From the IMG/VR virus record IMGVR_UViG_3300045051_000014: DNA of 64,000 nt. One strand, 5' to 3'. Below the pieces are notes generated by a model. The model made no database searches, had not been told where the DNA came from, and saw only the letters and a list, made by a program, of their open reading frames with translations. Below, in pieces: positions 32,884 to 53,429 of the stretch; the stretch's first letter is position 1; each line of letters starts with the position of its first letter. A program made the position numbers and the translations under genes. This stretch comes from a virus. Lineage: Duplodnaviria > Heunggongvirae > Uroviricota > Caudoviricetes.

Positions 32884-35217
32884 ATGACCAGTAGCGTAAA
32901 CGTTTCCACAGTCGTAGTCGCCAATACGTTCGACCAATGGCGCATTCAGACGAATCTTCTCAAAGATGACGTTAACGAAATTGCGCGTGGTGATTTCGTC
33001 AAGCCTACGGGTAACGTGACCCTCACTGTGGGTCGCATCGTTCTTCCTAATGCAACGGGAACCATGTTGGACGTTACCGCAGACGCTCGCGTTTCCGGTA
33101 AGATTTCGGTCAAGAACATCGAACAGGACGGTGGTGCTGCGTATCTCTATTCGGATTCTACGGATATCAAGTTCCGTGCAGGCGACGGTACGTTCCATGC
33201 CAACGGCAACACGCGCACTCGCTTCCTTTACAACAATACGTTCTTCTCCGGAGCCAACGTCAATGCGACAGGCTTCATTGAAACTACCGGAACCTATGCT
33301 AACGGCAACGTGATCATGAACGTGGCAAACGTTCTGGTCGTCCGTTCGGTTGCCAACAGTTCCAACGTCTACATCACAGGCAACGTTCAGGTTTCAAACG
33401 TAGCAACGATTGGCAATGCCCGAATCACTCTGGCAAACACCACTACCGAGAACGTCTTCACGCTCCATGCAAATACGACGGGCGCAACGGCAAACTTTGC
33501 CAACGCATACTTTGCCAACACAAATACGGTCAATGCGGTCATCGGCACAGCCAATGTCCAGACTCGCCTGAACGCAACCTCGGCAAACATCACAACCGCA
33601 AACGTTGCGACACTCAACGTTGCCGCTGCCGGTGCCACCGCAAACTTCGCAAACGTTACACTGGCTAACACGACGACAACCAACGCATCTATCGGTGTGT
33701 TGAATGTGACGACTCGCGAGAACGTGGTTCTGGCTAACATTGTCACGGCAAACATCGGCACGTTGAATGTATCGGGTGATGCACGCATCGCTACGGGCAA
33801 CGTCACGACTCTGAATGTAGTCACCGGTAATATCGGAACTCTATCGGTCACAAGCCTCTCGGTAACGGATCCAATCTCGGCTCCTTCCGAAACGGATTCC
33901 TCCTCCTACCGCCTGCGCGTTTCGCAGTCCACTCGCGGCGACGGTACGTTCGGTGTCTTCCAAGGCACGACGAATGGTAACGCACAGATCGCATTCTCTT
34001 CTACGTCTAATACGTGGCAGGCAACCGCAAACGATCTTGGCGGATCGTCCACTCTCATTACTACTGCAAATGTTAAGTCTACTTACGCCAACGAATCGGC
34101 AAACGTCGGTTCGCTCACGGTGGTCAAGGGTGCGAACGACAATGCTCTCGCAGCTTTTGCCTCTTCGAACGTGGCAGCTAACACGGTACGTGTCTCGGCA
34201 CAGTCTGCATCGACCATTCACAATGCTCAGTTGAACTTCATCAACTCGGCATCCATCAATGTCTCGGTCACGACGGGTGCAACGGGTAACGCAAACATTT
34301 CCTTCACTGCAAACTCTTCGAACCCGGCATTGCTAGGTCCACAGGGTATTCAGGGTACAACTGGCATTCAGGGATCTACGGGTCCACAGGGTATTCAGGG
34401 TGTTCAGGGAACAAAGGGAACGGATGGTATCATCGGTTCTAATGGATCGCAGGGTACGACAGGTGCGCAGGGTGCCACCGGTTCACAAGGAACGACCGGT
34501 GCTAACGGATCGAATGGTTCTCAGGGAACGACCGGTGCGAACGGTTCAGCCGGATCGCAGGGTATTCAGGGTGTGCAGGGAACGACCGGCGCGAACGGAT
34601 CGAATGGTACGCAAGGTGCGACCGGTGCTAACGGATCGAATGGTGCGCAGGGTTCTACCGGTGCCACAGGCTCGACGGGTTCGACGGGTGCGCAAGGTAT
34701 TCAGGGTATCACCGGTACGCAGGGTACGACAGGATCGCAGGGTGTCATCGGTGCTACTGGTCCTTCGACCGCAATTAACGCATCCAACAGTTCGGGTGGT
34801 AACTTCCACCTTGTCGGTGTCTCGTCATTCGGTTCTAACTACACACCTTACATCTACTCAGGCGTAGTCTACATGAACAACGGCGCGGTCTATGCAACAG
34901 ACTTTGCCGCAACCTCGGATGCTCGCCTCAAGAACGTTCTTGGATTTGTGGATGGTGCGAACGAACTTCTCGGTAGAATCAACGGCATTCGATACACATG
35001 GAACTCACTCGGAGAAAGCCTCGGATTCAAGAGTTCACATTCTGAGGGAGTGGAGCTTGGTGTTCTTGCACAGGAAGTCGAAGCAGTTCTTCCAGAAGCC
35101 GTACATACGGATGAGAATGGATACAAGAGAGTTTCGTATGACCGCTTGATTCCTGTTCTGCTTGAGGCAATCAAGGATCTTAATGCTCGTATCAAGGTAC
35201 TGGAAGCAAAAGAGTAA
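32884..35217 (+). CDS. Tail fibre with collagen-like segment and C-terminal S74 intramolecular chaperone
   Basis: N-terminal NTFDQWR..TN; G-X-Q repeats ~34336-34763; TSDARLKN..., GVLAQEVEAVLPEAV, VSYD.LIPVLLEAIKDL. Confidence 0.85.
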   Translation: MTSSVNVSTVVVANTFDQWRIQTNLLKDDVNEIARGDFVKPTGNVTLTVGRIVLPNATGTMLDVTADARVSGKISVKNIEQDGGAAYLYSDSTDIKFRAGDGTFHANGNTRTRFLYNNTFFSGANVNATGFIETTGTYANGNVIMNVANVLVVRSVANSSNVYITGNVQVSNVATIGNARITLANTTTENVFTLHANTTGATANFANAYFANTNTVNAVIGTANVQTRLNATSANITTANVATLNVAAAGATANFANVTLANTTTTNASIGVLNVTTRENVVLANIVTANIGTLNVSGDARIATGNVTTLNVVTGNIGTLSVTSLSVTDPISAPSETDSSSYRLRVSQSTRGDGTFGVFQGTTNGNAQIAFSSTSNTWQATANDLGGSSTLITTANVKSTYANESANVGSLTVVKGANDNALAAFASSNVAANTVRVSAQSASTIHNAQLNFINSASINVSVTTGATGNANISFTANSSNPALLGPQGIQGTTGIQGSTGPQGIQGVQGTKGTDGIIGSNGSQGTTGAQGATGSQGTTGANGSNGSQGTTGANGSAGSQGIQGVQGTTGANGSNGTQGATGANGSNGAQGSTGATGSTGSTGAQGIQGITGTQGTTGSQGVIGATGPSTAINASNSSGGNFHLVGVSSFGSNYTPYIYSGVVYMNNGAVYATDFAATSDARLKNVLGFVDGANELLGRINGIRYTWNSLGESLGFKSSHSEGVELGVLAQEVEAVLPEAVHTDENGYKRVSYDRLIPVLLEAIKDLNARIKVLEAKE

Positions 35218-35223
35218 TCCTGC

Positions 35224-36201
35224 ATGGCAACCGTTACTAATCCTGCATCGCTGAATTCGGTTAAGAGTGTATTTGGTGGACCTAACAATCTCCGTGCGTA
35301 TCTGCGCGGCGGTACGTATGTGTTGGGTATTGCCAACGCATATCCAAACATTGCGGCATCCGGAACACTTCTTCTTTCTGGATTTGCGGGTACGGTGAAG
35401 CCGGTTACGTATCTTCCTGCTAATACAGATTCGACCAACTCCCCACCACCGGGAGTGTCGGCATATGCAGAAATTGAAATCGGTGGAGCTTCCAACACCA
35501 CAGTTAAGTATAATAGTACCGCAACTTGGAGGCTCGCAGGAAATCCCGGCGACTATGAAGTTTACTTTCAGAAGAACAGTGGAACTACTCCTGCGGGATC
35601 AGCCGTTAATACATGGTTGAATCTTGCTACGACTCGTACATGGAGTCTATCACAGGCTCCAACGAATAACAATAAGACCACTTACGGACAATTGTTAATT
35701 CGTATGAGCGCATCACCATTCACAACGCTGAATACCGCAGGCGTATGGATGTACGTGTTCGCTGAATCTAACCAGTGTCCAACGTGCTGCTTCACACCAG
35801 ACACGCTTATCTCCATGGCAGATGGAACCACAAGAGCAATCGTTGCCGTCATGGTGGGCGATTGGATCATGGTCCGTGGTGGAACGAAGCAAGTCACCGA
35901 AGTCATCACACGGACGAATCGGGTCATGTACCAGATTCAGTTCGCAGACGGTCGCATTCTCAATGCCTCGGAAGACCACCCTCTCTACGTGGTGGACAAG
36001 GGCTACGCAGCCATCAACCCCGGTGTCGGTGGAATGTACAAGGACTTGGGCATTCCAGATCAGTTGTACGTGGGCGACCTCGTTCTCGACTCGGAAGGCA
36101 AAGAGAACCAGATTGTGTCTATCACTGAGCTTGACTATCCAGAAACGGTCTACACCTTCGCAGAGAGTGAGTTCTACGCCAACGGTATGCTCGTCTACTA
36201 A
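35224..36201 (+). CDS. Putative fibre-tip protein with C-terminal Hint domain
   Basis: N-terminal SL..VK..FGG.N.L..Y; CPTC-CFTPDTLI.MADG..., SEDHP, VY....FYANGMLV. Confidence 0.75.
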   Translation: MATVTNPASLNSVKSVFGGPNNLRAYLRGGTYVLGIANAYPNIAASGTLLLSGFAGTVKPVTYLPANTDSTNSPPPGVSAYAEIEIGGASNTTVKYNSTATWRLAGNPGDYEVYFQKNSGTTPAGSAVNTWLNLATTRTWSLSQAPTNNNKTTYGQLLIRMSASPFTTLNTAGVWMYVFAESNQCPTCCFTPDTLISMADGTTRAIVAVMVGDWIMVRGGTKQVTEVITRTNRVMYQIQFADGRILNASEDHPLYVVDKGYAAINPGVGGMYKDLGIPDQLYVGDLVLDSEGKENQIVSITELDYPETVYTFAESEFYANGMLVY

Positions 36202-36236
36202 TTCCCTAAATAGGTGGAATCCTCAGAGGAATTTCC

Positions 36237-36569
36237 ATGTACGCAGAACTTACCATTGACCAAGGCACTACGTTTTCGTCCACCATTAACCTCACGAACG
36301 ACGACAACACACCTATCGACTTGACGGGACATTCCTTTTCCTGTCAGGTTCGCAAGTCCTATTACTCGACTAATGCGACAGCCAACATTGCCGTTACGGT
36401 AGAAGGTGCCAATACCGATGGTGTTGTGCGCCTGACCCTAGACTCAGCCAACACTGCTAACATCAAGCCGGGGCGCTATCTATACGACCTTAAGATGACC
36501 GACGAAGCCAATACGGTCATTCGTGTTGTCGAAGGCATCGTCACGATCACGCCACAGGTTAGCAGATAA
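36237..36569 (+). CDS. Conserved phage virion adaptor protein (BppU-like Ig fold)
   Basis: L.IDQGTTF....L...P.DLTG......R..Y.S, G.V.L.L...T..I.PGRY.YD, R..EG.V...P.V. Confidence 0.7.
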
Positions 36570-39500
36570 TGAAAGTAGAGATTAAGTCTCAGAACAAGGT
36601 CGGAAAGGTTGAGGTATCCCCGGTAGCATCCGTAGGAACCGTCAACATTCGAACCGGTGTTCCCGGTCCTGCCGGTGTTGCCGGTAATACGACCATTATC
36701 AGCGATACCTTTGTTGCGGGTGCCGCTCAGACGGCTTATCCTCTTTCTTATGAGCCTTATGGCGAAGATTTTGTCATCGTTACTCTTAACGGTGTCACAC
36801 AGACTCCTAATACCCATTACAATCTAAGCGGCAACACGCTGAACTTCATCACCGCTCCGGATCAGGGTGACAACATCGAAGCTCGTATCTTTACTTCCGT
36901 TGGCATCGTCAGTGGAAGTCAGGGTTTGACCGGTGCGCAAGGAACAAAAGGATCACAGGGAACCACAGGCATTCAGGGAACGCAAGGTGTACAAGGTCTG
37001 GATGGTCTGTATGCGGCACAAGGTATTCAGGGACCGCAGGGTGCAGATGGTATTCAAGGTACTGCCGGTGTCCTAGGTGGCGATGGTGCGCAAGGCATTC
37101 AGGGTCTTCAAGGTCTGACAGGTGCCGGTACTCAGGGCGCTACGGGTTCACAAGGAACTCAAGGCGTACAAGGTCGTCAAGGTGTGACCGGAACGGGAAC
37201 GCAAGGTGCAACTGGTTCTCAGGGTCTTACTGGAACTGGCACACAGGGCGCGACGGGTTCTCAAGGTCTAACAGGAACCGGAACTCAGGGAGCTACTGGC
37301 TCGCAGGGAACTCAGGGTGTTCAGGGTCAAACCGGCTCTGGATCGCAGGGTGCTACCGGATCACAAGGTTCTACTGGTATTCAGGGATCCACTGGTACTC
37401 AAGGTCTGACTGGCGCAGGAACTCAAGGTGCCACAGGTTCTCAAGGTGTTCAGGGTCTTACTGGCACAGGCACTCAGGGTGCGACAGGATCGCAGGGTCT
37501 TACCGGATCCGGCACGCAAGGTGCTACGGGTTCGCAAGGCGCAACCGGTTCACAAGGTACGCAAGGTCTGACTGGTGCTGGAACACAGGGCACAACGGGT
37601 TCTCAGGGTGTGCAAGGAACCACTGGTCTACAGGGTTTGACCGGTGCCGGAACTCAAGGTTCGACCGGCTCTCAGGGTGTTCAAGGTACACAAGGCATTC
37701 AGGGTACCACCGGTCTACAGGGTCTTACGGGTACTGGAACTCAAGGTTCAACAGGTACTCAAGGTTCTACCGGTACGCAAGGCACGACGGGTTCTCAAGG
37801 AACTCAGGGTGTACAAGGCTTGCAGGGTACGGTAGGTACTGCCGGTGACAGATACTCAACGACCTCCGCAACCTCCCTCACAATTGGTACGGGCAACAAG
37901 CAACTTACCATCGGAACTGGACTGGCTTATTCTGCCGGTCAGTCAGTCGTCATTGCAAACAACGCAACGAACAAGATGGAAGGTTCTGTTTCCGCGTACT
38001 ACACCGCAAACGGAACCATGGTCGCATCCATTGCAACCACAGGTGGATCCGGCACGTTCAACGTGTGGGATGTTAACCTCGGTGGTGCGGCAGGTGCAGA
38101 CGGTGCGCAGGGTGTTCAAGGAACGACAGGTTCGCAAGGTGTTCAAGGAACGACGGGCATTCAGGGTAACACTGGCACGCAAGGCGTACAGGGTCTAACC
38201 GGTGCAGGAACACAAGGCGCAACTGGATCGCAGGGTTCGACCGGTACACAAGGCACAACAGGCTCGCAAGGTTTGACCGGAACTGGAACTCAGGGTTCGA
38301 CTGGTACACAAGGTACCACCGGATCTGGAAGTCAAGGTGTTCAAGGCACCACAGGTTTGCAAGGATCTACTGGAACCGGTACTCAGGGAGCAACCGGTAC
38401 TCAGGGTCTTACCGGAACTGGCACGCAAGGTGTACAGGGAACGACTGGTTCTCAGGGTCTAACAGGCACCGGTACGCAAGGCGCGACTGGATCACAGGGT
38501 TTGACTGGAACAGGAACGCAAGGTGTTCAAGGAACCACAGGTCTACAAGGATCAACGGGTACAGGAACGCAAGGTGCCACCGGTTCGCAGGGTCTTACGG
38601 GTTCCGGAACTCAAGGTGTTCAGGGAACCACTGGATCACAAGGTCTTACTGGCACCGGCACACAGGGAACGACCGGTTCTCAAGGTGTACAAGGTCTACA
38701 GGGTGTTCAGGGTACGACAGGCGGCGAAGGCGTTTCCGCAGGATCGACTGCGTATCGCTTCGACACAAGCACGGTTGACTCTGATCCCGGTGCAGGTAAG
38801 CTCAAGTTTAACAACGGCAACCTCACGCTTGCAACCCTCATGTGGGTTGACAACGTAAATGATCCGGCAGTCGATATCTCCGCATTCCTCAACGCGACGA
38901 ACGTGGGCGACAGGCTGTACGTGCAGAGAACGACTGATGCGGCAGTGTTCTTCTACTACACCGTTACGAGTAAGACGAATAAGACGGGCTACTACGAATT
39001 CGGTCTGACGCTAATCAATAACGGCACCGGCACCGTATTCACCAACAACGAAAAGATTTTCCTTGCCGTAGGCTATCGCGGTGCGCAGGGTGTACAGGGT
39101 GCGACCGGAACAGGAACGCAAGGAACCACTGGTTCTCAGGGTACACAAGGAACCACTGGATCACAGGGTCTAACAGGCGCAGGAACTCAAGGCGTTCAAG
39201 GTACAACAGGTTCTCAGGGTCAGACCGGCGCAGGTACACAAGGAACCACTGGATCGCAAGGTACACAAGGTCTAACTGGTGCAGGCACTCAGGGTGCAAC
39301 TGGTACTCAGGGTGTTCAAGGCACGACGGGTAATCAGGGTACAACTGGTGCGGGAACTCAAGGTGCCACCGGTACTCAAGGTGTGCAAGGCACAACTGGT
39401 CTGCAAGGTCTGACCGGTGCGGGAACGCAAGGCGCAACTGGATTGCAGGGTGTTCAGGGAACAACGGGTTCTCAAGGTGTTCAAGGAACTCAGGGTGTTC

Positions 39501-41068
39501 AGGGTAATCAGGGTGATGCGGCTGGAATGAGATACAATTTCAGCACCAACACTACGGACACTGATCCGACGACTGGTATCTTCAAGTTCAACAACGCAAC
39601 AATCGCTTCCGCAACGTTGATGTATATTGACAACACGGATCGCGGCAGCGTTGACATGACTGCATTTATTGATTCGTGGGATGACTCTACCGACACAAAC
39701 AAGGGTCATATCTACATCAATTCAAACGTAAACAGCGACACATCATATTTCATCTTCCGCGTTACGGGTGCGGTGATTGATGGAACAGGCTATAGAAAGG
39801 TTCCTATTGCGTTTGTTGCCGGAAACACACTCACTGATGGTGAGATTTGTGTTATCTATTTCAACGCAACGGGCGACATTGGTGCGCAGGGTATACAAGG
39901 AACGACAGGAACTCAAGGCGTACAAGGAACGACTGGTCTACAAGGCACGACGGGTACTGGTACGCAAGGTACAACCGGTACTACAGGCACTCAGGGTTCG
40001 ACTGGTACTCAAGGTACGACCGGAGCAGGTACGCAGGGTGTCCAAGGCACAACCGGTATTCAAGGATCTACGGGTACTCAGGGAACAACTGGAAGTGGAT
40101 CGCAGGGTGTTCAAGGCACGACTGGTATTCAAGGAACCACTGGTGCTGGAACTCAGGGTGTACAAGGCACTACGGGAATTCAGGGATCGACCGGAACTCA
40201 AGGTACCACCGGAGCAGGCACGCAGGGTGTTCAAGGTACGACAGGTCTACAGGGAACCACAGGCGCGGGAACTCAAGGTGTTCAGGGAACCACTGGCATT
40301 CAAGGGTCCACTGGTACTCAGGGTGTTCAGGGAACGCAGGGTGTTCAAGGTCGTCAAGGTACAACCGGAACGGGTACGCAGGGTGCGACCGGTGCGTTGT
40401 CGCCGTGGACGAAGAAGACTACAGCTTACACGCTACTCAATAATGATCGTATCATTGTCGATTCGTCAGGCGGTACCTTCAACCTCACGTTGCCTGCAAC
40501 TCCATCCGAAGGAACGTATGTACAGATCACGGATGGTGCAAGTCTACAAACTACGCCAGTCACAGTCCTGCGCAACGGTTCTACAATCGAAGGTGTCGCA
40601 GATGACCTCTCGCTCACTATCGGCAATACCACTTACGAATTGATCTACTCAGGATCCACATGGCATGTCACCGCACAAGCCGGTTCGAAGGGTGATGGTG
40701 GTGCGCAAGGAACGACAGGTGCGCAAGGTGTTCAAGGAACGATTGGCGCACAGGGTCCGACGAACCTTCCTCTAAATACTCAGACAGCCGGATATACGCT
40801 TGTTCTTTCGGATGCAGGCAAGCTAATTTCCATCACAACCGGTGGTGTCATCATTCCCGCTAACTCTTCTGTCAACTTCCCAAGAGGAACGATGGTCAGC
40901 ATTTACAATGATTCGGCTGCAAACCAGTCGCTCTCGATCACGACCGATACGTTGAGACTCGGCGGAACCGCAACCACAGGAACGATGAACATTGTGCAGC
41001 GTGGTATCGCGACTGTCCTCAAGGTGGCTAACACCGAATGGGTCGCATCCGGCGCAGGAGTAGGCTAA
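36569..41068 (+). CDS. Long collagen-like fibre protein (1499 aa), multiple G-X-Y blocks separated by globular knobs
   Basis: Extensive [10 protein letters not shown]-type repeats; duplicated knob YxFxTxTxDxDP..G..KFNN; C-terminal NTQT..YTL..SDAGK domain. Confidence 0.85.
36914..40760 (+). repeat. Interrupted 9-nt-periodic coding repeat (collagen-like G-X-Q/G-X-T), approximate bounds
   Basis: Dozens of degenerate CAAGGT/CAGGGT/ACTGGT units. Confidence 0.9.
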
Positions 41069-41069
41069 C

Positions 41070-41507
41070 ATGCCAATGCAGCAGATGGCACTCATGCACT
41101 ATAAGGCTCCTCCTGCCGGTGGTGGTGGAGATTCGGCATATCTTGAAAATGTTGCTTTGGTATTACCGGCTATCACTTCGGCGCAGGTAATTTTCAATAC
41201 TGCGAGCGGTAATATTGAATACATTGAAGATTCTTCTATAAAAAACACATACACATGGAAGACTGGAACCGGCGCACTAACTGACTATGATGCTAAGTAT
41301 ATAGAAACTGTAGCAACCGGACCCGTTTCCCTAGCAGGTAGCGCAGTAAATGCTTGGATTACGATGGCATTAAACACACCATCATGGAGTTTGGGTGCTG
41401 GTGCAACAGATAGCGTTAGTTCTGGATATTTGCTAATTAGAAATAACCTTAGTCTACAAGAACTTGCGAATGTCACGCTAGAAATACGAACGAACGCATT
41501 CGCATAA
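41070..41507 (+). CDS. Putative fibre-tip/adhesin protein
   Basis: Follows the fibre gene; shares a TW..DY..GSAVN.W..WSL..G.LLIR motif with 35224 and 49135; AT-richer codons. Confidence 0.6.
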   Translation: MPMQQMALMHYKAPPAGGGGDSAYLENVALVLPAITSAQVIFNTASGNIEYIEDSSIKNTYTWKTGTGALTDYDAKYIETVATGPVSLAGSAVNAWITMALNTPSWSLGAGATDSVSSGYLLIRNNLSLQELANVTLEIRTNAFA

Positions 41508-41519: not shown

Positions 41520-42116
41520 ATGGCACAAGACGTAAAAACAGTTCTCGGCAGTAACTTCACTGGTCCACAGGGAATTCAGGGAGCAACCGGTGCAGGCACG
41601 CAAGGTGTTCAAGGCACTACTGGCATCCAAGGCAACCTAGGAACTCAAGGTACAACAGGCGCAGGCACGCAAGGTGTTCAGGGAACCACAGGAACCGGAA
41701 CTCAGGGTGTTCAAGGTACGACCGGTGCCGCAGGTCCGCGCACGCTCAACTTCCTGATTTCGGGTGGCGGCGCGGCGATTACGACAGGCGCAACAGAAGC
41801 CGCTCAGACAAAGGGCTATATCTATACCTCACAGAACCTCGTCATTGATTCGTGGTCGTTGCTCTCCAACGCATCCGGAACAATCGTTGTAGATATCTGG
41901 ACAGGAACGTATTCTGCATTCCCAACGTTGGTTCTCGCATCGTCTACTACACAAAGACCTCGACTCTCAGCCGCGTCGAAGAACACCGCATCGAACTCAG
42001 GCATGACGATCACGAACATTGCCGCAGGTAACGTCATTCAGTTCCGTGTGAACAGTGTCGCGACAGTTGACGTAACAGACGTTACGGTGGTCATGAACGT
42101 TATTGCTACATCATAA
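41520..42116 (+). CDS. Short collagen-like fibre protein
   Basis: G-X-Q repeats ~41560-41735, then a beta-rich C-terminal domain. Confidence 0.75.
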   Translation: MAQDVKTVLGSNFTGPQGIQGATGAGTQGVQGTTGIQGNLGTQGTTGAGTQGVQGTTGTGTQGVQGTTGAAGPRTLNFLISGGGAAITTGATEAAQTKGYIYTSQNLVIDSWSLLSNASGTIVVDIWTGTYSAFPTLVLASSTTQRPRLSAASKNTASNSGMTITNIAAGNVIQFRVNSVATVDVTDVTVVMNVIATS

Positions 42117-42890: not shown

Positions 42891-44855
42891 ATGCCAAATA
42901 AGCCTACCTCAAAACAAATTCTCATTAGCGCAAACAACGCACTGGCTAACATCGTGTTGGCAAACGGTGTTGTCAACGCGACTGAGATTCAGGTGGGTGG
43001 TACACTCGTCATCAACTCCGAAGGCTATTTCGTCGGTACAGGTGGCGGTGGTGGCGGCACGCAAGGTGCGACGGGTGCGCAAGGTATTCAGGGAACGAGT
43101 GGCTATGTCGGTAGTGATGGTGCGCAAGGTGTTCAAGGTACAACCGGATCCGGATCACAAGGCACGACTGGTTCGCAAGGATCCACAGGTACGCAGGGAA
43201 CAACAGGTTCTCAAGGCACCACAGGCTCACAGGGTTTGACTGGAACTGGTACTCAAGGCGCTACAGGATCACAGGGTCTTACGGGAACGGGTACTCAAGG
43301 TGCCACAGGCTCTCAAGGATCTACTGGTACCCAAGGCACAACCGGATCACAGGGAACGACTGGCTCACAAGGTTTGACCGGAACTGGAACTCAGGGTGCG
43401 ACAGGTTCTCAAGGAACCACAGGCTCACAAGGCGTTCAAGGTCTAACTGGCGCAGGCACGCAAGGCACAACCGGCTCGCAGGGTTCAACTGGAACTCAAG
43501 GTGTTCAGGGACTAACCGGTGCCGGAACTCAGGGAGCTACTGGCTCACAAGGTTCTACTGGTACTCAGGGCGTTCAAGGTCTAACTGGATCCGGATCGCA
43601 AGGTGTGCAAGGAACGACCGGTTCACAAGGTCTTACTGGTACAGGCACGCAAGGTGCAACAGGTACTCAAGGCGTTCAGGGTCTTACCGGTTCTGGATCA
43701 CAAGGCACAACTGGATCGCAAGGGTCCACTGGCACTCAAGGTGTTCAGGGTCTGACGGGCGCGGGAACTCAGGGCGTACAAGGAACGACCGGTATTCAGG
43801 GTAACACTGGCATTCAAGGCACTCAAGGTGTTCAGGGTCTAACTGGTGCAGGAACACAGGGCGCGACGGGTGGTGGAACCGCTGCCGGATCGAACACCGA
43901 AATTCAGTTCAATAATAATGGTGTGGTTGGCGCTTCGGCAAATTTAACGTTTGATCTTGCATCGAACACCGCATTCGTATATGCCATTAACGTTGCAACG
44001 GATTTGCAACTTACTACATTCAACCCATCTACACCACCATCGACCGGTAATGTTTTGATTTTCGGTCGAAGTGTCGGTGGACGAATGATGCCTGCATTCA
44101 TGGGTCCATCGGGTTTGGATTCTTCGTTGCAACCAATTCTCGCAAGAAATCGGGTTTCGTGGATTCAATGGACGGGTACTGCGGCACTCGCCAACTCTCA
44201 AATGGGTTTGCCTGCTGCACCAACATATACTGGAACACAAACTGCCAGAACACCAAGCGCAACAAGCTTTTATCAATCTATTCGCCGTCTTGGATTGGTG
44301 AGTGCCGCTACCGCAGGATCAAACAGTTCAATGCGTGTTGCGTCTACACACTGGCTACGCGGCAATACAGCAGGTATGGGTGGATTCCACTATATTGTGA
44401 GATTCGGTGTTGCCGATGCTGCGGTGGTTTCGTCTGCGAATATGTTTGTTGGGTTGACTAACACTTCTACACTATTTGCTAACTCTGCAAATGTAGCGAC
44501 ACTTGCAAACACGATTGGTGTAGGTCAGGTGGGAACAAGTAACAACCTACAGATTATTACTAATTTGAATAGTGCCACCGCACATCTGATCGACACAGGA
44601 TTACTATGTAACGTTGGTAACGCTGCCGTTTGGGATGTTGCAATGTTTGCTGCCCCTAATGATGATAAGGTTCAGTTTGGTATCACCAATATTGCAAATA
44701 CGGCACAAACATACAACACCACGATCACCGCTAATTCGGTGAACTTGCCACTTGGTAATACTATGCTATGTCCGTACATCTGGCGTACTAATGGTGGTGC
44801 GGCATCAGCCGTTGCAGTAGACCTGATCAGTCTGTATATCGAAACCGATAGTTGA
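42891..44855 (+). CDS. Collagen-like fibre protein with lectin-like C-terminal domain
   Basis: G-X-Q repeats ~43056-43870; [12 protein letters not shown] module; preceded by late promoter CTAAATA 42860-42866. Confidence 0.8.
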
Positions 44856-44892
44856 TCGTCTAAATAGGGTGACACTATCCCTAGGATAAACC

Positions 44893-47800
44893 ATGGCAGA
44901 CTTTCCTTCCAATCCGACCATCGGCACGATCTTCACTTCCAACGATGGTACATCATGGGAGTGGGACGGTTATTCGTGGAAAGCGGGTGGTGGACTCGGC
45001 GGTGGCGGCGGAATCTCAGAGATTTACGTATCCGCGAACTCCGCATCGACCGTCAATGCGAACGGTCTGAACTTCATCAATTCGGCAACCGTCCTTGTCA
45101 ATGTCGTTCCCGGCGTGACAGGTAATGCCAATGTCTCGTTCTCTTCTGCTCCCGGTCCTCAAGGTACTACCGGCATTCAGGGTTCCACCGGCATTCAAGG
45201 AACGCAGGGTGTTCAGGGATTGCAGGGACCACAAGGCACGACAGGTATTCAGGGTGCAACCGGCATTCAAGGTTTGACCGGTATTCAAGGAACTCAAGGC
45301 GTACAGGGAACCACAGGAATTCAAGGATCGACTGGTATACAAGGATCGACGGGTACTCAAGGTTCGACCGGTACACAGGGATCGACTGGTACACAAGGCA
45401 CGCAGGGTGTTCAGGGTCGCCAAGGAACTACAGGCTCTCAAGGCGCGACAGGTACGCAGGGTTCGACGGGTATTCAAGGTTCTACTGGTATTCAGGGATT
45501 CACCGGCTCGCAGGGAACTCAAGGTGCAACCGGTTCTCAGGGAACGCAAGGTGTACAGGGACGACAAGGCGTACAAGGTCTTGATGGTCTATTCGCGGGA
45601 CAAGGTGCAACCGGTGCGCAGGGTCCACAGGGCGTTCAAGGTGTCGAAGGTGGTTCGGGCGTAACTACACTACAGACCAATCAATACACATCGACGGCAA
45701 ACCAGACTGTCTTCACACTAAGCACTTCTGTAGTGAGTGAGAAGTACGTCTTCGTCACTCGCAACGGTGTCGTTCTCGTTCCTACTTCACACTATACGGT
45801 TGCCGGATCGACGCTAACACTTACCTCTAATACTCAGGCAGGCGATATCATCGAAGCTCGCGTCTTCGAAACATTGGGTGTAGGTATTCAGGGTGTGCAG
45901 GGTGTACAAGGAACGACCGGCACTCAGGGTGCAACTGGCACACAAGGTTTGACAGGCATACAGGGATCGACGGGTACACAAGGTTTTACTGGTGCGCAGG
46001 GAACTCAAGGTGTTCAGGGAACCACCGGCATTCAAGGTCTAACTGGTATTCAGGGTTCGACGGGTCTGCAAGGTATTCAGGGTCCGCAGGGAACCACTGG
46101 TATTCAAGGATCGACAGGTACGCAGGGAGTAACCGGCTCACAAGGCACTCAAGGTGTGCAGGGTCGCCAAGGTGTTCAGGGAACGACCGGCATTCAGGGT
46201 GCGACGGGTACACAGGGAACTCAAGGTCTGACTGGCGCAGGCACTCAAGGTGCTACTGGTTCTCAGGGTACGACAGGCTCTACCCCTGCCATCGGCGGTG
46301 CCAACACGCAGATTCAATTCAACAACAATGGTGTGTTGGGTGGATCGGCAAACCTTGTATTCAATCTCAACGGCAACACATTCACGACGAACTACGGTGT
46401 GTTCTCTGGTGGTGGATTAGAAGTTCAAGGACTCTATCCTCAAGTTAAGTGGTATCAGAGTGACGGTGCCGTAAACGAAAAGAACTCCGTAATGTTGGTG
46501 GACGGTGGATCGTGGGATATTCGTTTCTACGACGATGCAAGCTCGGCATACGGAACACCAATAAACATTCAACGAACCGGCATCAATCCAACCACGATAA
46601 CGTTGAATGCCAACGTTCAATTTATCAGCACGGCAGAACCAACCGCACTTCTCTATCGCGATGCTCAAGCAAATGGAGTGGGTGTCGGTCTGCTTTATTG
46701 GGATGGAAAGAACGCATCTGGTACTCGCGTATCTTACGCACGCCTACAGACCGAGATTTCTTCCAACGTTGCGGGTGCGCATACTGGCGCATTCCAGATT
46801 GAGACTTCGCAAGCCGGAGCAATGCTTCCGGTAATCACGGCTAATGGCGCACTTGTTGGTATCGGAACTGTCAGCCCACAAGCATCACTTGATGTGAATG
46901 GAAGCGTCAGAATTAAGGAGAATGGATCGCAACTCACCCTGAATGAATCAGACGGTCCTGATCCTGTAGATAGAGGCATTGTTGAAGTTAATTTGGGCAA
47001 CTTCAACATCTATACCCATGACAACTCCACGAATACGTGGAGACTGCCATTCTCAGCAAATATTGCGACGGGTAATGTCACAATCGGAAACTGGCAAGTA
47101 TCTGGTTCGGATCAAGGTGTTCAGCGACTCGCACAAAGTACCGAAGTTTTCACCTATGACGGTGACAACCTCGCGCACTACGGACTCTCGTACTATCCGG
47201 ACAGTGGCAACGGCGGAACGACGGCTGCGTTGTCTGGATACTATGGTATCAAGTTCTTTACTTCTGGTGTTCATGCGTACTCCATCGACTCGGGTGGAAC
47301 TCTAATCAGCAGAAAAAACGGTGCAGAAGTCACCCCGCTCGCGCTATACAATGATACCGCAAGCCAGTTGGTAAACACAAGCATTCGAATTGGATATAGC
47401 ACCAGTGGCTATGGTTGGAAGGTCACTAGCAACAACAATCCATCTTCACAGTACGCAGGACGCTTGGAGTTCTGGCGCGGCAACGGTGGATATGCTCTGG
47501 CAGGATATTTCAACAATGACGGACAGTTTATTCTTCCTAGCGCAAATGTTGGTATCGGTTCCAGTGCCACAGCACCATCTTCACCGCTCAACGTAGACAA
47601 TGGTTCCTCTCGACTACACATTGGTTACAACGGAAGCCAGAACTACATTGATGGTTCTGACACATATTTCCGCACCTATGCGGGTGATACAAACTTCTAT
47701 CTTGTAAGCAACACCAAGATCATTCACTATGCGGGTATTGTATCTGACTCATTCCAAAACACAGACTTACAGCGTTCATTGAATCCGAAGGGTGGTGCGC

Positions 47801-48843
47801 GTGGATCGCGAACCATCACTGAAACGGGCTACATTGCCATCAAGCTGCCAACTGCACGATTGAACTCGGACTCCATGATGTGCTTCACGGTCAACATCTA
47901 CGACTATGCGGGTGGATCAGAAGCTCAAGGACGACAGATTCGTATCTATGGTTACAACTATGGTGGTGGTTGGTTCAACTGTGGCGCGACAGATCTTTGC
48001 GCAAACGGATCCATGACACCGCTTGAAGTTCGCTTTGGTCACGATGGTACGCGCAATATTGTCTGGATCGGAAGTTCAGGAACCGTCTGGAACTATCCAC
48101 AAATTAGCGTTGTAGATCACCAAGCGGGATATTACACATCTGCTGATTGGGCGCAGGGATGGGATATTACCATCACAACTACTCTCAATACGGTCAGTGT
48201 GGGTCCGCTTTACACCAACAAAGCAATCGTATCTAACTACGAAAACTCGGCATGGTTGGAACCGAATAAAGATGGATCATATGGTCAGTGGCAGATCAGC
48301 GGTTCCAAGGGAAGCTATGGTGGAATTTTGGACACCTATTCTGGTGTCAACTGGATGTATGATAATGCGGGTAATGGTGGATTCTATCGGGCTGCATCCT
48401 ACGGATGGAGCCAGTATTACAGTGCAACAAATGCCTGCCTAGGTGTCTACGGCAGCACCACATCATCTTCCTACAAACTCTATGTCTCTGGTGCTATCTA
48501 CGCAACAGGCGACATTGTGGCATTCTCGGATCGTCGCCTCAAGGAAAACATTTACACGATTGAGAATCCACTCGACAAGGTGCTAAGACTTCGCGGTGTT
48601 AACTTCAACCGCATTGACGATCCTGACAAGAAGCTACAGATGGGTGTCATTGCGCAGGAAGTTCTGGAAGTGGTTCCAGAAGTCGTCACACACTCCGAGA
48701 AGACAGACGCGGAAGGTAACGCAGGCGAAGAATACGGAGTCAACTACGGTGCGCTAGTCGGCGTACTGATCGAAGCAGTGAAGGAACTCAACGCGAAGGT
48801 TGAGGCACAGGCAGAACTAATCAGGAAACTAACCAATGGCTAA
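44893..48843 (+). CDS. Long tail fibre with collagen-like blocks, mosaic beta domains and S74 chaperone
   Basis: N-terminal FPSNPT.G..F...G..W.WDG..W; repeats ~45154-46285; FSDRRLKENI, GVIAQEV..VVPEVV, VNYG.LVG.LIEAVKEL. Confidence 0.87.
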   Translation: MADFPSNPTIGTIFTSNDGTSWEWDGYSWKAGGGLGGGGGISEIYVSANSASTVNANGLNFINSATVLVNVVPGVTGNANVSFSSAPGPQGTTGIQGSTGIQGTQGVQGLQGPQGTTGIQGATGIQGLTGIQGTQGVQGTTGIQGSTGIQGSTGTQGSTGTQGSTGTQGTQGVQGRQGTTGSQGATGTQGSTGIQGSTGIQGFTGSQGTQGATGSQGTQGVQGRQGVQGLDGLFAGQGATGAQGPQGVQGVEGGSGVTTLQTNQYTSTANQTVFTLSTSVVSEKYVFVTRNGVVLVPTSHYTVAGSTLTLTSNTQAGDIIEARVFETLGVGIQGVQGVQGTTGTQGATGTQGLTGIQGSTGTQGFTGAQGTQGVQGTTGIQGLTGIQGSTGLQGIQGPQGTTGIQGSTGTQGVTGSQGTQGVQGRQGVQGTTGIQGATGTQGTQGLTGAGTQGATGSQGTTGSTPAIGGANTQIQFNNNGVLGGSANLVFNLNGNTFTTNYGVFSGGGLEVQGLYPQVKWYQSDGAVNEKNSVMLVDGGSWDIRFYDDASSAYGTPINIQRTGINPTTITLNANVQFISTAEPTALLYRDAQANGVGVGLLYWDGKNASGTRVSYARLQTEISSNVAGAHTGAFQIETSQAGAMLPVITANGALVGIGTVSPQASLDVNGSVRIKENGSQLTLNESDGPDPVDRGIVEVNLGNFNIYTHDNSTNTWRLPFSANIATGNVTIGNWQVSGSDQGVQRLAQSTEVFTYDGDNLAHYGLSYYPDSGNGGTTAALSGYYGIKFFTSGVHAYSIDSGGTLISRKNGAEVTPLALYNDTASQLVNTSIRIGYSTSGYGWKVTSNNNPSSQYAGRLEFWRGNGGYALAGYFNNDGQFILPSANVGIGSSATAPSSPLNVDNGSSRLHIGYNGSQNYIDGSDTYFRTYAGDTNFYLVSNTKIIHYAGIVSDSFQNTDLQRSLNPKGGARGSRTITETGYIAIKLPTARLNSDSMMCFTVNIYDYAGGSEAQGRQIRIYGYNYGGGWFNCGATDLCANGSMTPLEVRFGHDGTRNIVWIGSSGTVWNYPQISVVDHQAGYYTSADWAQGWDITITTTLNTVSVGPLYTNKAIVSNYENSAWLEPNKDGSYGQWQISGSKGSYGGILDTYSGVNWMYDNAGNGGFYRAASYGWSQYYSATNACLGVYGSTTSSSYKLYVSGAIYATGDIVAFSDRRLKENIYTIENPLDKVLRLRGVNFNRIDDPDKKLQMGVIAQEVLEVVPEVVTHSEKTDAEGNAGEEYGVNYGALVGVLIEAVKELNAKVEAQAELIRKLTNG

Positions 48844-49135
48844 CTCAAGCATTACATTCTCATGGTACGATGAATCGGCAAACACGACCGATATCTACGT
48901 CCACGAATTCTCACAGGCAAACTATGATCGCATCATCGAAGCGGGACGTTATGCATTTGGCACCATGAATGCGCAAACGATGCTGATGGAACTGGTGAGC
49001 AAGAATAAGGCGCGTAAGCAGACCTGTAAAGAATCAGTTCAGATCTGGAAAGATCGCGCACGGCAGCTAGAAATCTCCCTCGCGACGGCAAACACGGCAG
49101 CGAACATTCCACCGATTGACTCTACGGAAGTCTAA
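48836..49135 (+). CDS. Hypothetical protein (possible fibre assembly chaperone)
   Basis: Coupled ORF between fibre and tip genes. Confidence 0.5.
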   Translation: MANSSITFSWYDESANTTDIYVHEFSQANYDRIIEAGRYAFGTMNAQTMLMELVSKNKARKQTCKESVQIWKDRARQLEISLATANTAANIPPIDSTEV

Positions 49136-49689
49136 TGACTCTACCCACGGTAAATCTCGCAGCATCGGCAATTCAGACGGAGTACGGTGGTTCCAACCCT
49201 GTTGCTCTGTCTGAATACTATTCTGCGTGTACGAACGTGGCAACGTCGGGAACAATCAAGTATGCTCAGTTCCTAGGAACTACAAAACCGGCAAGCGGCA
49301 CGACACGATTGGATGCCGAGACACTGGTAGCTCATGGTATTCACTCGGCAACTTGTAACACTGTTTTCTTCGCCAATGGTACATCGCAACAGATTGTAGA
49401 CGGCGACATTACAGCCACAGGCGCAGGAAGCTATACTTGGCTACAGGGTGGCGCGGCAGGTGACTACGAAATCAAAGCCACAAAGACCGCAGGAACCGCA
49501 GCCGGAACGTTCTCTTCTGGATGGGCAAATGACACATGGGCAGCAATGTCTACAAACAGAAATGTATCTCTAACCAGAACCGCATTTGGAGTTGCTACGG
49601 TGACGTTGAGCATTTCCATTCGTTATACTTCTAATTCCACGGTCATCAACACGGCGACTACATCCATGAGTTCTGAGGCAGACAAGTAA
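49135..49689 (+). CDS. Putative fibre-tip/adhesin protein
   Basis: N-terminal AIQTEYGGSNPVALSEYY, paralogous to 51235. Confidence 0.7.
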   Translation: MTLPTVNLAASAIQTEYGGSNPVALSEYYSACTNVATSGTIKYAQFLGTTKPASGTTRLDAETLVAHGIHSATCNTVFFANGTSQQIVDGDITATGAGSYTWLQGGAAGDYEIKATKTAGTAAGTFSSGWANDTWAAMSTNRNVSLTRTAFGVATVTLSISIRYTSNSTVINTATTSMSSEADK

Positions 49690-49690
49690 C

Positions 49691-50254
49691 ATGTCATACG
49701 TAGACACACAACGAGAAATTGCCATCCTGTTTCCACACAAAACAGGAACGCATACGATTAGAACAATTCTGAAAGACCACGGAAGGATTCAACACGTAAA
49801 GCTACAGGGTGTTTGGAGTCACGAAACTCTAGACTATCTAAGGGCAACGTATCCCAACATCTACTCCTACGATGTGTATGCGTTCTACCGGGAGCCGGTC
49901 GAGCGATTCATGTCATTCGTGGCATACAACTATCGAAAGTTTCCACTGATGAAGCCGTGGACGAACGTTCACGATTACATTGAGGAATATGGATACTTCG
50001 CACCGCAGACTCGGTGGCTGACTCACCACACAGCCGACGTTCAACTTCTGGACTTCCGCAAGTTCGAAAGCGAACTTCGCAAGCTTCTGAATCGGTTGGA
50101 CATTCCTAACACCATCGACATTCCTAAGTTGAATAAGAGCGACAACAGGAAGTCGGTCGAGTCTCTGGCTCCCGACGAGATTCAAGCCATCAAGACAGTC
50201 ATGAAGGAAGAGGTGGACTTCTTTGAATCCAAGGGCATCAAGTTCAACATCTAA
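49691..50254 (+). CDS. Sulfotransferase-like protein (Sulfotransfer_2-type)
   Basis: PHKTGTHT (5'-PSB-like), YAFYREPVERFMS (3'-PB-like), PQ..W, P.LNKS. Confidence 0.75.
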   Translation: MSYVDTQREIAILFPHKTGTHTIRTILKDHGRIQHVKLQGVWSHETLDYLRATYPNIYSYDVYAFYREPVERFMSFVAYNYRKFPLMKPWTNVHDYIEEYGYFAPQTRWLTHHTADVQLLDFRKFESELRKLLNRLDIPNTIDIPKLNKSDNRKSVESLAPDEIQAIKTVMKEEVDFFESKGIKFNI

Positions 50255-50264
50255 ATAAGCAGCC

Positions 50265-51233
50265 ATGGCATACAATAGACCCACCGCAAATCAAGTCAAT
50301 CTAGGTTCTACGAATCTGGATCAGGTTATCAATGCCTCGGGAACGTGGATTGGTAGCCCTACCGGTTTGCAGGGTCCGACAGGATCGCAGGGTGTGCAGG
50401 GTTCAACCGGCTCACAAGGCGTGCAGGGTGTACAAGGTCGGCAGGGAACGACAGGAACTCAAGGCACAACCGGAGCGCAAGGTGTTCAGGGAACAACCGG
50501 TATACAAGGCACAACCGGCATTCAGGGAACGACCGGTGTTCAAGGTCTAACTGGACCCACTGGCAACCAATTGACGGTTGCCGATACTCGTAATACGGCT
50601 ACTACACCGGAAACATTAGCCTCGCCTCTGATTTCATTCGACTTCAAAGGCAACTCAACCGAAGGTCTTTCGGACGGTGGAACCTACTTTGGTGAGTTTA
50701 CATTCCGCAAGTACGGTAGCACTACCGACTGGACGGGTGGACCCTCTCACCAGTTGGGATTCACAGAAAACGCCAACGTCTTCCTTCGTGTTGGAACGAG
50801 TACGACATGGGGTGCTTGGGGACGATTGCTCAAAGAGAACACTAATTGTAATGTGGCATCGCTCGGTGTGGGAACCAACCCTTCGGGTACTGCCGGTGAA
50901 ATTCGTGCGACCAACAACATCACCGCATACTACTCGGACATGCGCCTCAAGGACAAACTCTATACTATTCCTGATGCGCTTGCCAAGGTCATGTCACTCT
51001 CAGGATTCTTCTTTACGCCTAATCAGGTCGCACAGGATTTGGGTTATGAACTCAAGCGAGAAGTCGGTGTCTCGGCACAGGAAGTCCAAGCCGTTCTACC
51101 AGAAGCCGTTGCGCCTGCACCTATTGATGAACAATACCTCACCGTCCGCTATGAGAAACTGGTGCCGCTACTGATCGAAGCCATCAAAGAACTCAAGCTT
51201 GAGGTTGAATTACTCAAAGCCAAGGTGCAGTGA
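50265..51233 (+). CDS. Short collagen-like fibre with S74 chaperone
   Basis: G-X-Q repeats ~50365-50565; [40 protein letters not shown]; late promoter CTAAATA 50251-50257. Confidence 0.85.
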
Positions 51234-51234
51234 C

Positions 51235-52728
51235 ATGGCAGTTCCTACTTACCCTAGCGCAATCACGCTAACCGATATTCAGACCGAATTCGGCGGAAGC
51301 AATCCTGCGTCACTGAACGAATACTACTCGGGTGGAACCTATGTCGCATCCGGCATTGCGAACTCCACCGGCACCGTCATTCCGACTTCGGGCGCAATCA
51401 ACTTCCTGAACTTCTCGGGTGCGGTTTCATTCCCGGTTGACCCGACACAGCCTACCGTTACACTAGACCACTTCCACGGTAAGTGGTCTTGGGGTAATGA
51501 GCAAATGTATGACCTGTTTCAGAGTAATAAAACAGGTCACATCTACGCCAGAGCCGGAAATAACCTTCTTTGGTGTCTGGATGGATCGGGCGCAAAAGTA
51601 TTCGCGAACACGTATACTACAGGACAGGGTGCTTGGGCTGTCTCTGAAAGAAATCCATATTACATCTACTGGAAGAGTGGATCTGGAAGTTCGCTCGTAT
51701 TTGGAAAAACCTCCAATACTGGAACAATAGTAAAACAATCCAACATTTCTTGGGGAACATCAAATACTTCGATTTGGATTTACGGCTTGAAGCCCACATC
51801 CGGAACTGCCAATGCGAACACTTCTCTCTATGGAATATTTGCAAGCAACGTCAATTCTGGTAATTGTACAACCAGTATTGTCAAAATCAATGCAAGTGAC
51901 ATGACTACAGTTGAGTGGGCGAAGACAACTTCGGTCATCGGCTCGGATGTGACAGCCAACATCAGACCAAATTACATCTACACTACGGCTGACGAAAGTG
52001 CTGTCATTGTTTCTGGTCAGAGAACTACAACCAATACCGTAGTGTTGGTACTAGCGGCATCGGATGGAGCCACACAACAAAGTTGGCAGACCGCACCAAA
52101 TTACGAAATCAAGCGCAAGCCAACGTCGGCTAACAACATTGCGTTGTCGTATGTACAATATTTCAGTTTGAAATCCAATACCGGAGCAAATGTTGCTAAC
52201 CTGTATATTTCCAATACATCGTGGACAGGCGCATATGCTTCTTATATCTATGACATAGACTACGATTCCAATATATACTGCGCGGCGCGTAGGCAGGTGG
52301 GCAACACATCTGAAATTGTTGCCACGATTGCGAAATACAATACTTCCGGAACTCGACAGTGGCAAATAAAGATTGGAACAACGAACTCAGCAAATGGTGT
52401 GTTGATTAATAGTTTCAGTGCCTCAAATAACAGGCTTGTCCTCCAACTACAAGAATTCACCGAGACTTGGGACGGTTTTAAGTGGTATACGAGTGGTTTT
52501 GGTGTAGTCAGGTATCTAAGTATTGATGCCGCATCTGGTAACACCGGAACCATGGGTGAGTATACTCTCACTAGTGATACTACGAGTATTTGGTCTACGG
52601 GAACCGGAAACATTGGATTGTGGTCATATACATACAGCCCAAGAACCACCTATGATTTCACACTCGCGGCTAATACCCTTGGCACCGGAACGGCTAATAC
52701 TGGAACCTTCACGAAGACAGCACTATGA
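51235..52728 (+). CDS. Putative fibre-tip/adhesin protein with beta-propeller-like body
   Basis: N-terminal ITLTDIQTEFGGSNPASLNEYYSGG; repeated D.SG..W-like blades; start moved to ATG 51235. Confidence 0.7.
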   Translation: MAVPTYPSAITLTDIQTEFGGSNPASLNEYYSGGTYVASGIANSTGTVIPTSGAINFLNFSGAVSFPVDPTQPTVTLDHFHGKWSWGNEQMYDLFQSNKTGHIYARAGNNLLWCLDGSGAKVFANTYTTGQGAWAVSERNPYYIYWKSGSGSSLVFGKTSNTGTIVKQSNISWGTSNTSIWIYGLKPTSGTANANTSLYGIFASNVNSGNCTTSIVKINASDMTTVEWAKTTSVIGSDVTANIRPNYIYTTADESAVIVSGQRTTTNTVVLVLAASDGATQQSWQTAPNYEIKRKPTSANNIALSYVQYFSLKSNTGANVANLYISNTSWTGAYASYIYDIDYDSNIYCAARRQVGNTSEIVATIAKYNTSGTRQWQIKIGTTNSANGVLINSFSASNNRLVLQLQEFTETWDGFKWYTSGFGVVRYLSIDAASGNTGTMGEYTLTSDTTSIWSTGTGNIGLWSYTYSPRTTYDFTLAANTLGTGTANTGTFTKTAL

Positions 52729-53429
52729 TCATTTCACCAGACAAAACCAAGGTCTTCCTTGCCGTCACAAAGAACGGTTCGACTACCGTTGAATACCTAC
52801 TGTCTCAGATTCCCGGTGTCATCTATCTGGATCATATGCGGGTGAAGCATGGGGATCGCGGAACTCTTCAAACTCAAACGGAAATAAATCCACTGGTCGC
52901 AGATGTGAATGCACAGACAATAGAGTGCTATGCGTTTATTCGCAATCCTGTGGATCGTTTCTTCTCGGCATGTAATTATCTCAAGAGATTTCCATATTCT
53001 CTTGTTAATTTGTTTCCAGAGAAATTCAGTGTCGAAGAATTCTCAATTCCAACTAACGACCCTCCGCGCCAATGGAGTTTGGCTGAGTGGCTTTCTATGC
53101 CGCTATCTCTAAGAACGAGAATTCGCAATCTGACCATAGAGGATTTTCTAAGTATTCCTGAGTATAAACTCGGCTACGTGATACGAGAGCAGTCCCACTG
53201 GTTTGATTTGGGAACTACAGGACTTCGATATGATGACTTCCAGAATGAAGTCCGCAGGCTGATCACCCTATTTGGTGGCGACCCTACGGTAAATATCCCC
53301 AACCTGAACGCTGCGGACGATTTTCCAACGGTTACACAGTACGTTAGAACCCACGACATTTACATGGAAATGTTCCGCCGTTACGAGCGGGACTATCGGC
53401 TATTAGAAGCCTACGGAATGGATCATTAA
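52725..53429 (+). CDS. Second sulfotransferase-like protein (Sulfotransfer_2-type)
   Basis: MIIS....FL.VTKNGSTT, YAFIRNPVDRFFSA, EQS.W, RYDD, P.LN, Y..DY. Confidence 0.75.
   Translation: MIISPDKTKVFLAVTKNGSTTVEYLLSQIPGVIYLDHMRVKHGDRGTLQTQTEINPLVADVNAQTIECYAFIRNPVDRFFSACNYLKRFPYSLVNLFPEKFSVEEFSIPTNDPPRQWSLAEWLSMPLSLRTRIRNLTIEDFLSIPEYKLGYVIREQSHWFDLGTTGLRYDDFQNEVRRLITLFGGDPTVNIPNLNAADDFPTVTQYVRTHDIYMEMFRRYERDYRLLEAYGMDH

Follow-up and report, generated by a model that had tools for sequence, protein, structure and literature searches.

The host range of tailed phages is set at the fibre tip, and, to our knowledge, the combination of a trimeric fibre with a monomeric adhesin is structurally understood so far only in relatives of the T-even coliphages. 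In the 6F45 crystal structure, one gp38 sits on the gp37 trimer, with a three-helix N-terminal domain and three tryptophans inserted every 120 degrees (PMC6851490). The gp38 adhesins are monomeric and modular (PMC12032242), and a C-terminal S74 domain on a coliphage fibre is already taken as a sign of a gp38-like adhesin (PMC12143355). In S16, gp37 carries the Pfam S74 domain at residues 638-698, with the cut between ..DLNVS and SDRRIK, and gp38 consists of Gp38_N at residues 1-41 (1.1e-19) followed by GP38 at residues 46-249. Here, we analyzed a fibre gene array at positions 32884-53429 of a 64,000-nucleotide stretch of viral DNA (IMG/VR record IMGVR_UViG_3300045051_000014; hereafter, the window), in which three S74-bearing fibres are followed by proteins that open with a common N-terminal module. 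Our reading, to which we give a probability of roughly 0.7, is that this module is the folded attachment domain, about 60 residues long, of a monomeric fibre-tip protein.

A sequence-only reading of the window had noted that fibre genes are repeatedly followed by a smaller partner gene, that the partner after each S74 fibre starts with a shared motif, and that this GGSNP..EYY segment may be a docking module for the cleaved fibre end. All of the open reading frames (ORFs) that it named were recovered on the + strand at the same coordinates. When its motif was searched for as a regular expression in all six frames, exactly three copies were found in the 64-kb window, at the N termini of the proteins encoded at 35224, 49135, and 51235 (genes are named here by their first position), so that the shared opening holds for all three S74 fibres and occurs nowhere else in the window. 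The three fibre and tip genes are as follows.

32884..35217, + strand: fibre 1, 777 amino acids (aa), collagen repeats and a C-terminal Peptidase_S74 domain (Pfam Collagen 2.2e-22, S74 1.9e-8)
35224..36201, + strand: tip protein 1, 325 aa, a diverged three-repeat module at aa 1-~58, an immunoglobulin (Ig)-like beta-sandwich at 61-183, and a Hint/BIL domain at 189-325 (alignment, AlphaFold2 [AF2], Foldseek, VIA)
44893..48843, + strand: fibre 2, 1316 aa, collagen repeats and S74 (Pfam S74 7.2e-16)
49135..49689, + strand: tip protein 2, 184 aa, module at aa 1-~52 and an Ig-like beta-sandwich (alignment, motif search)
50265..51233, + strand: fibre 3, 322 aa, collagen repeats and S74 (Pfam S74 3.1e-8)
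51235..52728, + strand: tip protein 3, 497 aa, canonical module at aa 1-62 and a beta-propeller-like domain (AF2, propeller matches, complex prediction)

The module genes stand directly after the S74 fibres, except that a 99-aa ORF (48836) separates 44893 from 49135. All three fibres exceed the 22-bit cut-off of Pfam PF13884 (Peptidase_S74), with 34.9 bits for 32884, 58.7 bits for 44893, and 34.2 bits for 50265. The S-D-x-R-x-K motif is intact at the start of each S74 domain, as SDARLK, SDRRLK, and SDMRLK, respectively; the serine and lysine of this cleavage motif are catalytic according to the endosialidase literature. The predicted cuts fall before S678 in fibre 1 (between ..DFAAT and SDARLK, approximately nucleotide [nt] 34915), before S1212 in fibre 2 (between ..GDIVAF and SDRRLK, approximately nt 48526), and before S224 in fibre 3 (approximately nt 50934), where the mature end would be NITAYY. 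Judging from these motifs, the window fibres probably cleave themselves at the start of S74.

Next, we examined the module itself. The three window N termini share 44 to 49% identity across approximately 62 residues and then diverge. A profile built from these three sequences and searched against 1.84 billion representative proteins matched 3,703 clusters at an E value of ≤1e-3 and 611 at 1e-10. Among the 150 best matches, the match started within the first 10 residues of the protein in 147, in proteins of 75 to 835 aa, and an alignment of 51 module copies was strongly conserved up to about residue 62 and unalignable beyond. The consensus, read directly by eye, divides into three pseudo-repeats, SG.LSLSDIQTEFGG / NPISLSEYYaGG / SGAIS..NFYG, and the near-invariant positions fall into this repeat pattern. 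In the AF2 model of the 35224 protein, the module has a predicted local distance difference test (pLDDT) score of approximately 88 to 90. Five module N termini (three from the window and two from related loci) had no Pfam match even at an E value of ≤10, Gp38_N (PF21721) included, and the module matched nothing in NCBIfam or PHROGs. A sequence search of PDB chains returned no relative (best E value, 0.26), and the literal motif strings had no match in the literature searched. The possibility that the module is a relative of S74 was ruled out, with an hhalign probability of 0.1%.

A diverged form of the module, ..SGAISLNDIHVEAGG..SLNDADIR..SFSEWYG, was observed at L163:3138-4118, L170:3138-4097, and L226:3132-4262, with the three strands retained. 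Since the profile hidden Markov model misses this form, the family must be larger than 3,703 clusters. Among cultured phages, the module is found in phiM9 gp135, encoded after the S74-bearing gp134, and in JC1 gp60, encoded after the tail fibre gp59, as well as in phages of Agrobacterium, Ralstonia, Xanthomonas, and Vibrio; these proteins are always annotated as "hypothetical." As a separate observation, Vibrio phage 6E35.1a (L001:6980-7513; QZI87587.1) encodes a module followed by a Ser/Thr-rich tail, annotated as a "putative cell wall mannoprotein," and this gene lies among non-structural genes, far from the fibre genes.

The genomic association of the module with fibre ends was analyzed in 80 viral-contig loci that were fetched by the module alone and contain 81 module ORFs. 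Forty of these start no more than 50 nt beyond an S74 ORF, the stop codon of which often overlaps the start codon of the module ORF, and for 9 others an S74 ORF lies farther upstream. The adjacency of module and S74 exceeds chance. At the loci that lack S74, approximately 30 of 31 module ORFs follow an ORF ending in ..LDASGNLTVvGNVTAYGTV, and this ..GNVTAYGTV end is the strand that directly precedes the SD.RLK cleavage site in S74 fibres. Across the upstream proteins adjoining module genes, 66 of 78 have the mature end [DN][VI]..[YF]. We also sampled in the reverse direction, picking 72 S74-less fibres that end in ..GNVTAYGT[VIM] by this C-terminal peptide alone. A module ORF lies within 60 nt downstream in 61 of them; for the other 11, the sampled downstream ORFs have a diverged variant of the three repeats in which the ISLND/VSLND/SFSE strands are retained. 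No conserved third gene, such as a chaperone gene, was found after the module genes, where the downstream genes vary.

These S74-less fibre genes form a large class, present in L162-L241 and elsewhere (e.g., L019:1949-3481 and L029:1163-1606). Essentially all of those ending in ..GNVTAYGT[VIM] are then followed by a module gene, whose start codon usually overlaps the stop codon of the fibre gene.

To model the proposed contact, three copies of fibre 50265 (residues 101-223) and one copy of 51235 (residues 1-80) were predicted as a complex with custom alignments of 51 paired loci. The 3:1 complex reached an ipSAE of 0.86 (0.85, 0.89, and 0.86 in the individual runs), and the best of three controls gave 0.00. 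At least 79% of the contacts were common to the runs, and the pLDDT of the partner was at least 86. In the calibration of the tool, 58 of 80 solved complexes and 2 of 110 mismatched pairs reached the mark, counts that are only approximate with custom alignments. The high ipSAE is unlikely to come from a memorised solved homologue, since the module has no sequence relative in the PDB. In the model, the last six residues (NITAYY) of each fibre chain contact module residues 6-13, 23-28, and 52-58, which correspond to the three repeat strands. The predicted arrangement, in which a threefold fibre is capped by a single chain that has a pseudo-threefold symmetry of its own, would be a simple explanation of the repeats. 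The module is N-terminal in every protein examined, and no fusion of fibre and module was seen; this would be explained by stoichiometry, because a fusion would force a 3:3 complex. Together, the co-occurrence with fibre ends, S74-bearing or not, and the interface predicted for the 50265/51235 pair, two checks that had been put forward with it and that both gave a positive outcome, support the earlier suggestion that the GGSNP..EYY segment is a docking module.

Beyond the module, the tip proteins carry very different domains. In the 51235 protein, AF2 predicts a beta-propeller-like domain (pLDDT 79) with matches to propellers, among them CylK (7ron; 7e-8). The 49135 and 35224 proteins share an Ig-like beta-sandwich. 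The same sandwich is found in the 41070 protein (BLASTP E values of 5e-7 and 6e-4 to the 35224 and 49135 proteins), where it is joined to a different N terminus, which fits the use of different docks for different fibre ends. Structural comparison of the Ig-like middle domain gave only generic beta-sandwich matches (Z scores of 6 to 7), and therefore no function was deduced from the fold. Pfam GP38 hits 15 of 82 distinct module proteins and Gly_rich_2 hits 14; others match DUF7483 or RCC1, and the overall consensus is glycine-rich. Pfam GP38 (PF05268) matched none of the partner proteins in the window. The distal domain most likely binds the receptor; for the domains of the window, position and variability suggest this role. 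Gene order, motif, family size, co-occurrence, and domain architectures are direct observations, the 3:1 interface is a prediction, and S74 cleavage and the presence of the tip proteins in the virion are inferred.

In the mechanism that we propose, the fibre would trimerise with the aid of its C-terminal S74 chaperone, which would then cut itself off at the SD.RLK site. Cleavage would bare three identical C-terminal strands (..NITAYY or ..DIVAF), and the trimer would be capped by one module, whose three repeat strands would each pair with the C-terminal strand of a different chain. A single asymmetric distal domain would thereby be mounted on a threefold fibre, be it a beta-propeller (51235), an Ig-like sandwich (49135 and 35224), or, in many relatives, a gp38-type glycine-rich adhesin. 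The phage would thus have three or more S74 fibres that differ in their tips, and additional fibres docked in other ways.

Several observations weigh against the proposal that the module is a tip attachment domain. The ipSAE is the model's own confidence and not proof of binding, and the alignments behind it were supplied by us. Both the module of 35224 and the end of its fibre (DFAAT) are diverged. The module protein of the 253-kb Vibrio phages sits away from any fibre gene. In a further reverse sample, of 85 S74 fibres picked by S74 similarity, a module gene follows only 12, so the fibre end is generic, the module is optional, and the partner is not determined by the fibre end alone. The idea that the NITAYY end before SD is a specific docking signal is weakened likewise, as most S74 fibres lacking a module gene downstream have this end too. 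Finally, from the only virion proteome found, that of JC1 (PMC9144972), the fibre gp59 and the module protein gp60 are both missing, which is uninformative either way.

An alternative is that the module proteins serve in assembly, as do T4 gp38 and, in Alteromonas phages, the S74-like "transient caps" that act in trans; they would then bind the fibre end while it folds and be missing from the finished virion. Their genes do lie directly after a fibre gene, as do T4 g38 and Alteromonas gp27/gp9 (PMC12032242, PMC10579305), the S74-less fibres are essentially always followed by a module, as a folding role would have it, and gp60 is missing from the JC1 virion data, although the same is true of its fibre (PMC9144972). 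Nevertheless, a conserved anchor with large hypervariable distal domains, in proteins of 75 to 835 aa, is the signature of a receptor-binding protein and not of a chaperone; fibres already equipped with an S74 chaperone are also followed by the module, and the module profile has no similarity to that of S74. We therefore consider an assembly factor improbable. It is less probable still that the module proteins are structural but docked elsewhere, on the baseplate or the fibre shaft, their adjacency to fibre genes reflecting only the co-regulation of late tail genes. The module genes that are not beside a fibre gene, in the Vibrio phages and a few other loci, and the many S74 fibres without a module gene after them would agree with such a position. 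However, the association tracks one specific C-terminal strand upstream, with or without S74, the start codon frequently overlaps the preceding stop codon, the model places contacts solely on the last six fibre residues with controls at 0.00, and the module takes the place of Gp38_N in gp38-type proteins. That the motif is a conserved leader or paralogous remnant without a docking role, in three unrelated accessory genes duplicated within the lineage, is already disfavoured and hardly credible, for although a single genome has the three copies and a beta-sandwich is common to two of the proteins, the module occurs in approximately 3,700 clusters from many phage types with unrelated distal domains, and it has a near-invariant repeat pattern and a confident AF2 model in 35224.

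Tip protein 1 differs from the other two in its C terminus. The last 137 residues of the 35224 protein (aa 189-325; nt 35788-36201) form a Hint/BIL domain in an AF2 model with a pLDDT of 92, with a Foldseek match to BIL2 (6y75; 3.2e-10) and a VIA alignment to 6tmm (Z score of 20.5; root mean square deviation of 1.8 Å over 138 residues). The Pfam scores of this protein are below the gathering thresholds (Hom_end_hint, 29.2 versus 32.1 bits; Hint, 21 versus 29.7 bits), and the assignment therefore rests on fold and motifs. The architecture recurs in at least 60 homologues, and C189 and H252, the block-B histidine, are invariant in all 60 Hint-bearing homologues compared. These proteins end in ..ANG[MVI]LVY (..ANGMLVY in 35224) with nothing beyond, and they have no C-extein, C-terminal asparagine, or downstream nucleophile. 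In intein and Hedgehog chemistry, this allows only N-terminal cleavage or transfer, because there is no C-terminal asparagine or downstream nucleophile to support anything further. The Hint domain most likely cuts itself off at its N terminus, at Cys189, and the remaining tip protein would then have 188 aa, similar in size to the 49135 protein. The domain may serve to mature the tip protein by removing itself, or it may be a transfer device that works through a thioester. The Tetrahymena BUBL BIL2 domain (6tmm/6y75) and the Hedgehog-type Hint have the same fold, Cys1, and block-B histidine as 35224; unlike in those proteins, the domain of 35224 terminates a phage fibre-tip protein. A more far-reaching scheme, which we regard as speculative and rather unlikely, is that the module acts as a single-chain "registration clamp" that grasps three C termini, nucleates trimers, replaces S74 in the S74-less fibres, and stays as the base of the adhesin, with tips of the 35224 lineage also matured or covalently transferred by their own Hint domain.

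The cassettes belong to a larger array. The order of the baseplate wedge, terminase, sheath, and portal genes in the window is T4-like, and by this gene content the window comes from a T4-like myovirus. The protein database assigns it to a contig of 172 kb. Its portal protein shares approximately 52% identity with the portals of Methylophilales phage Melnitz and cyanomyophages, and a search of cultured phages for near-identical DNA found no near relative. Between 32884 and 53429, every gene is on the + strand and the genes are tightly packed. Pfam detects collagen-type G-x-y repeats in six proteins, those of 32884, 36569, 41520 (weak), 42891, 44893, and 50265. The remaining genes of the array are the following.

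36237..36569, + strand: 110-aa Ig-like protein (phrog_1084; resembles phrog_3304, "L-shaped tail fibre assembly")
36569..41068, + strand: fibre of 1499 aa with six collagen blocks and no S74 (Pfam Collagen 2.2e-74)
41070..41507, + strand: 145-aa partner of the 1499-aa fibre, beta-sandwich, no module (BLASTP)
41520..42116, + strand: short collagen-repeat fibre-like protein, 198 aa (phrog_5073 tail fibre, 4e-12; Pfam Collagen weak)
42132..42863, + strand: 243-aa protein, tied to the preceding gene by adjacency alone (viral hypothetical clusters in the protein atlas)
42891..44855, + strand: collagen-repeat fibre, 654 aa, no S74 and no partner gene (Pfam Collagen 1.3e-23)
48836..49135, + strand: 99-aa ORF between fibre 2 and tip gene 2, overlapping both (conserved in the close relative L002)
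49691..50254, + strand: sulfotransferase-like gene 1, 187 aa, weak assignment (phrog_3347, 6.5e-5)
52725..53429, + strand: sulfotransferase-like gene 2, 234 aa, weak assignment (phrog_3347, 1.9e-4; Pfam Sulfotransfer_2 below threshold)

As seen from this list, the earlier description of fibre-then-partner cassettes holds for the three S74 pairs with a module and, through the shared beta-sandwich, for 36569 and 41070; for 41520 and 42132 there is adjacency only, and the 42132 protein had no family match and no informative atlas match in Pfam, PHROG, NCBIfam, or the protein atlas. Likewise, the phage had been credited with at least 3-5 distinct collagen-stalk fibres with tips that might be interchangeable; of the five cassettes, only three use the module. 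A sulfotransferase-like gene had been noted after two cassettes; both genes are present, and their identity is weakly supported (49691 and 52725 match phrog_3347, and 52725 scores 16.8 bits with Sulfotransfer_2, whose cut-off is 22). We rejected them as a general component of the cassette, since homologues were seen only in L002, L149, and L127. The 99-aa ORF had no family match and no homologue outside L002. In 16 loci of the S74 sample (L091:4436-4777, L088:5463-5804, and 14 more), a homologue of the 110-aa Ig-like protein (phrog_1084) is encoded a short distance after the S74 fibre, and this protein looks like a second recurrent neighbour of S74 fibres.

In a relative at approximately 58% identity, the first cassette is retained with its S74 fibre, module-Hint protein, and 110-aa protein, and the later fibres differ, which is typical of a fast-changing host-recognition locus. 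Upstream, in the interval from the baseplate wedge genes to the first fibre (25498-32662), two very large proteins of 1336 and 1040 aa are encoded (phrog_358; DUF4815 in a relative), both conserved in the relative L244. Inside its own fibre array, at 14619-15566, this 131-kb relative encodes a 315-aa glycine-rich gp38-like protein, which has a different start and is not matched by the module profile, suggesting another docking solution.

If the proposed role is correct, tip adhesins would become recognisable in uncultured phages, where they are now called "hypothetical." It would also explain how one conserved fibre end can bear very different receptor-binding domains (gp38-type, propeller, RCC1, and DUF7483), and it would provide a compact plug for tip-swap work in laboratory phage-host pairs. 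Moreover, the obligate pairing of S74-less fibres with the module, and the role of the Hint-tipped variants in fibre folding or maturation, would become directly testable.

Overall, these results relate the locus closely to the (gp37)3-gp38 tip of T2, T6, and S16 (6F45; PF21721 and PF05268), an analogy already drawn from the sequence and an apt one. In both, a fibre that ends in S74, as S16 gp37 does, is followed by the gene of a tip protein with a short conserved N-terminal domain and a variable distal part that binds the receptor in S16 and most likely does so here. The N-terminal domain of the monomeric S16 protein contacts the three fibre chains through three pseudo-equivalent elements, its Trp-tipped helices (PMC6851490), and one copy of the module is predicted to make three comparable contacts. 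The GP38 glycine-rich domain is itself present in many module proteins. The relative P0111 combines a module at residues 1-62 with GP38 at residues 72-296 (profile positions 10-216); since its domain layout coincides with that of S16 gp38, the module sits exactly in the place of Gp38_N. By phmmer, P0111 had no match to S16 gp38, although Pfam GP38 matches P0111. The two systems differ in the sequence of the attachment domain and in the predicted mode of contact, which in our model is strand pairing with the extreme C-terminal residues rather than the insertion of tryptophans into pockets. In addition, the distal domains in the window are a propeller and Ig-like sandwiches and not GP38, and the module also serves fibres without S74. 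The "transient caps" of Alteromonas phages V22 and A5 (PMC10579305) are likewise encoded directly after the fibre gene and predicted on the distal fibre end; those caps, however, are trimeric S74 homologues, whereas the module is unlike S74, is predicted at one per trimer, and carries large variable domains. Rather than the undescribed system that had been suspected, the locus is a variant of the known gp37-gp38 design, and our results support the module as a second, sequence-unrelated attachment domain for monomeric tips on S74-processed fibres. The gp37-gp38 principle is already known; what is new is the attachment domain, how widely it occurs, and that it is used on fibres without S74.

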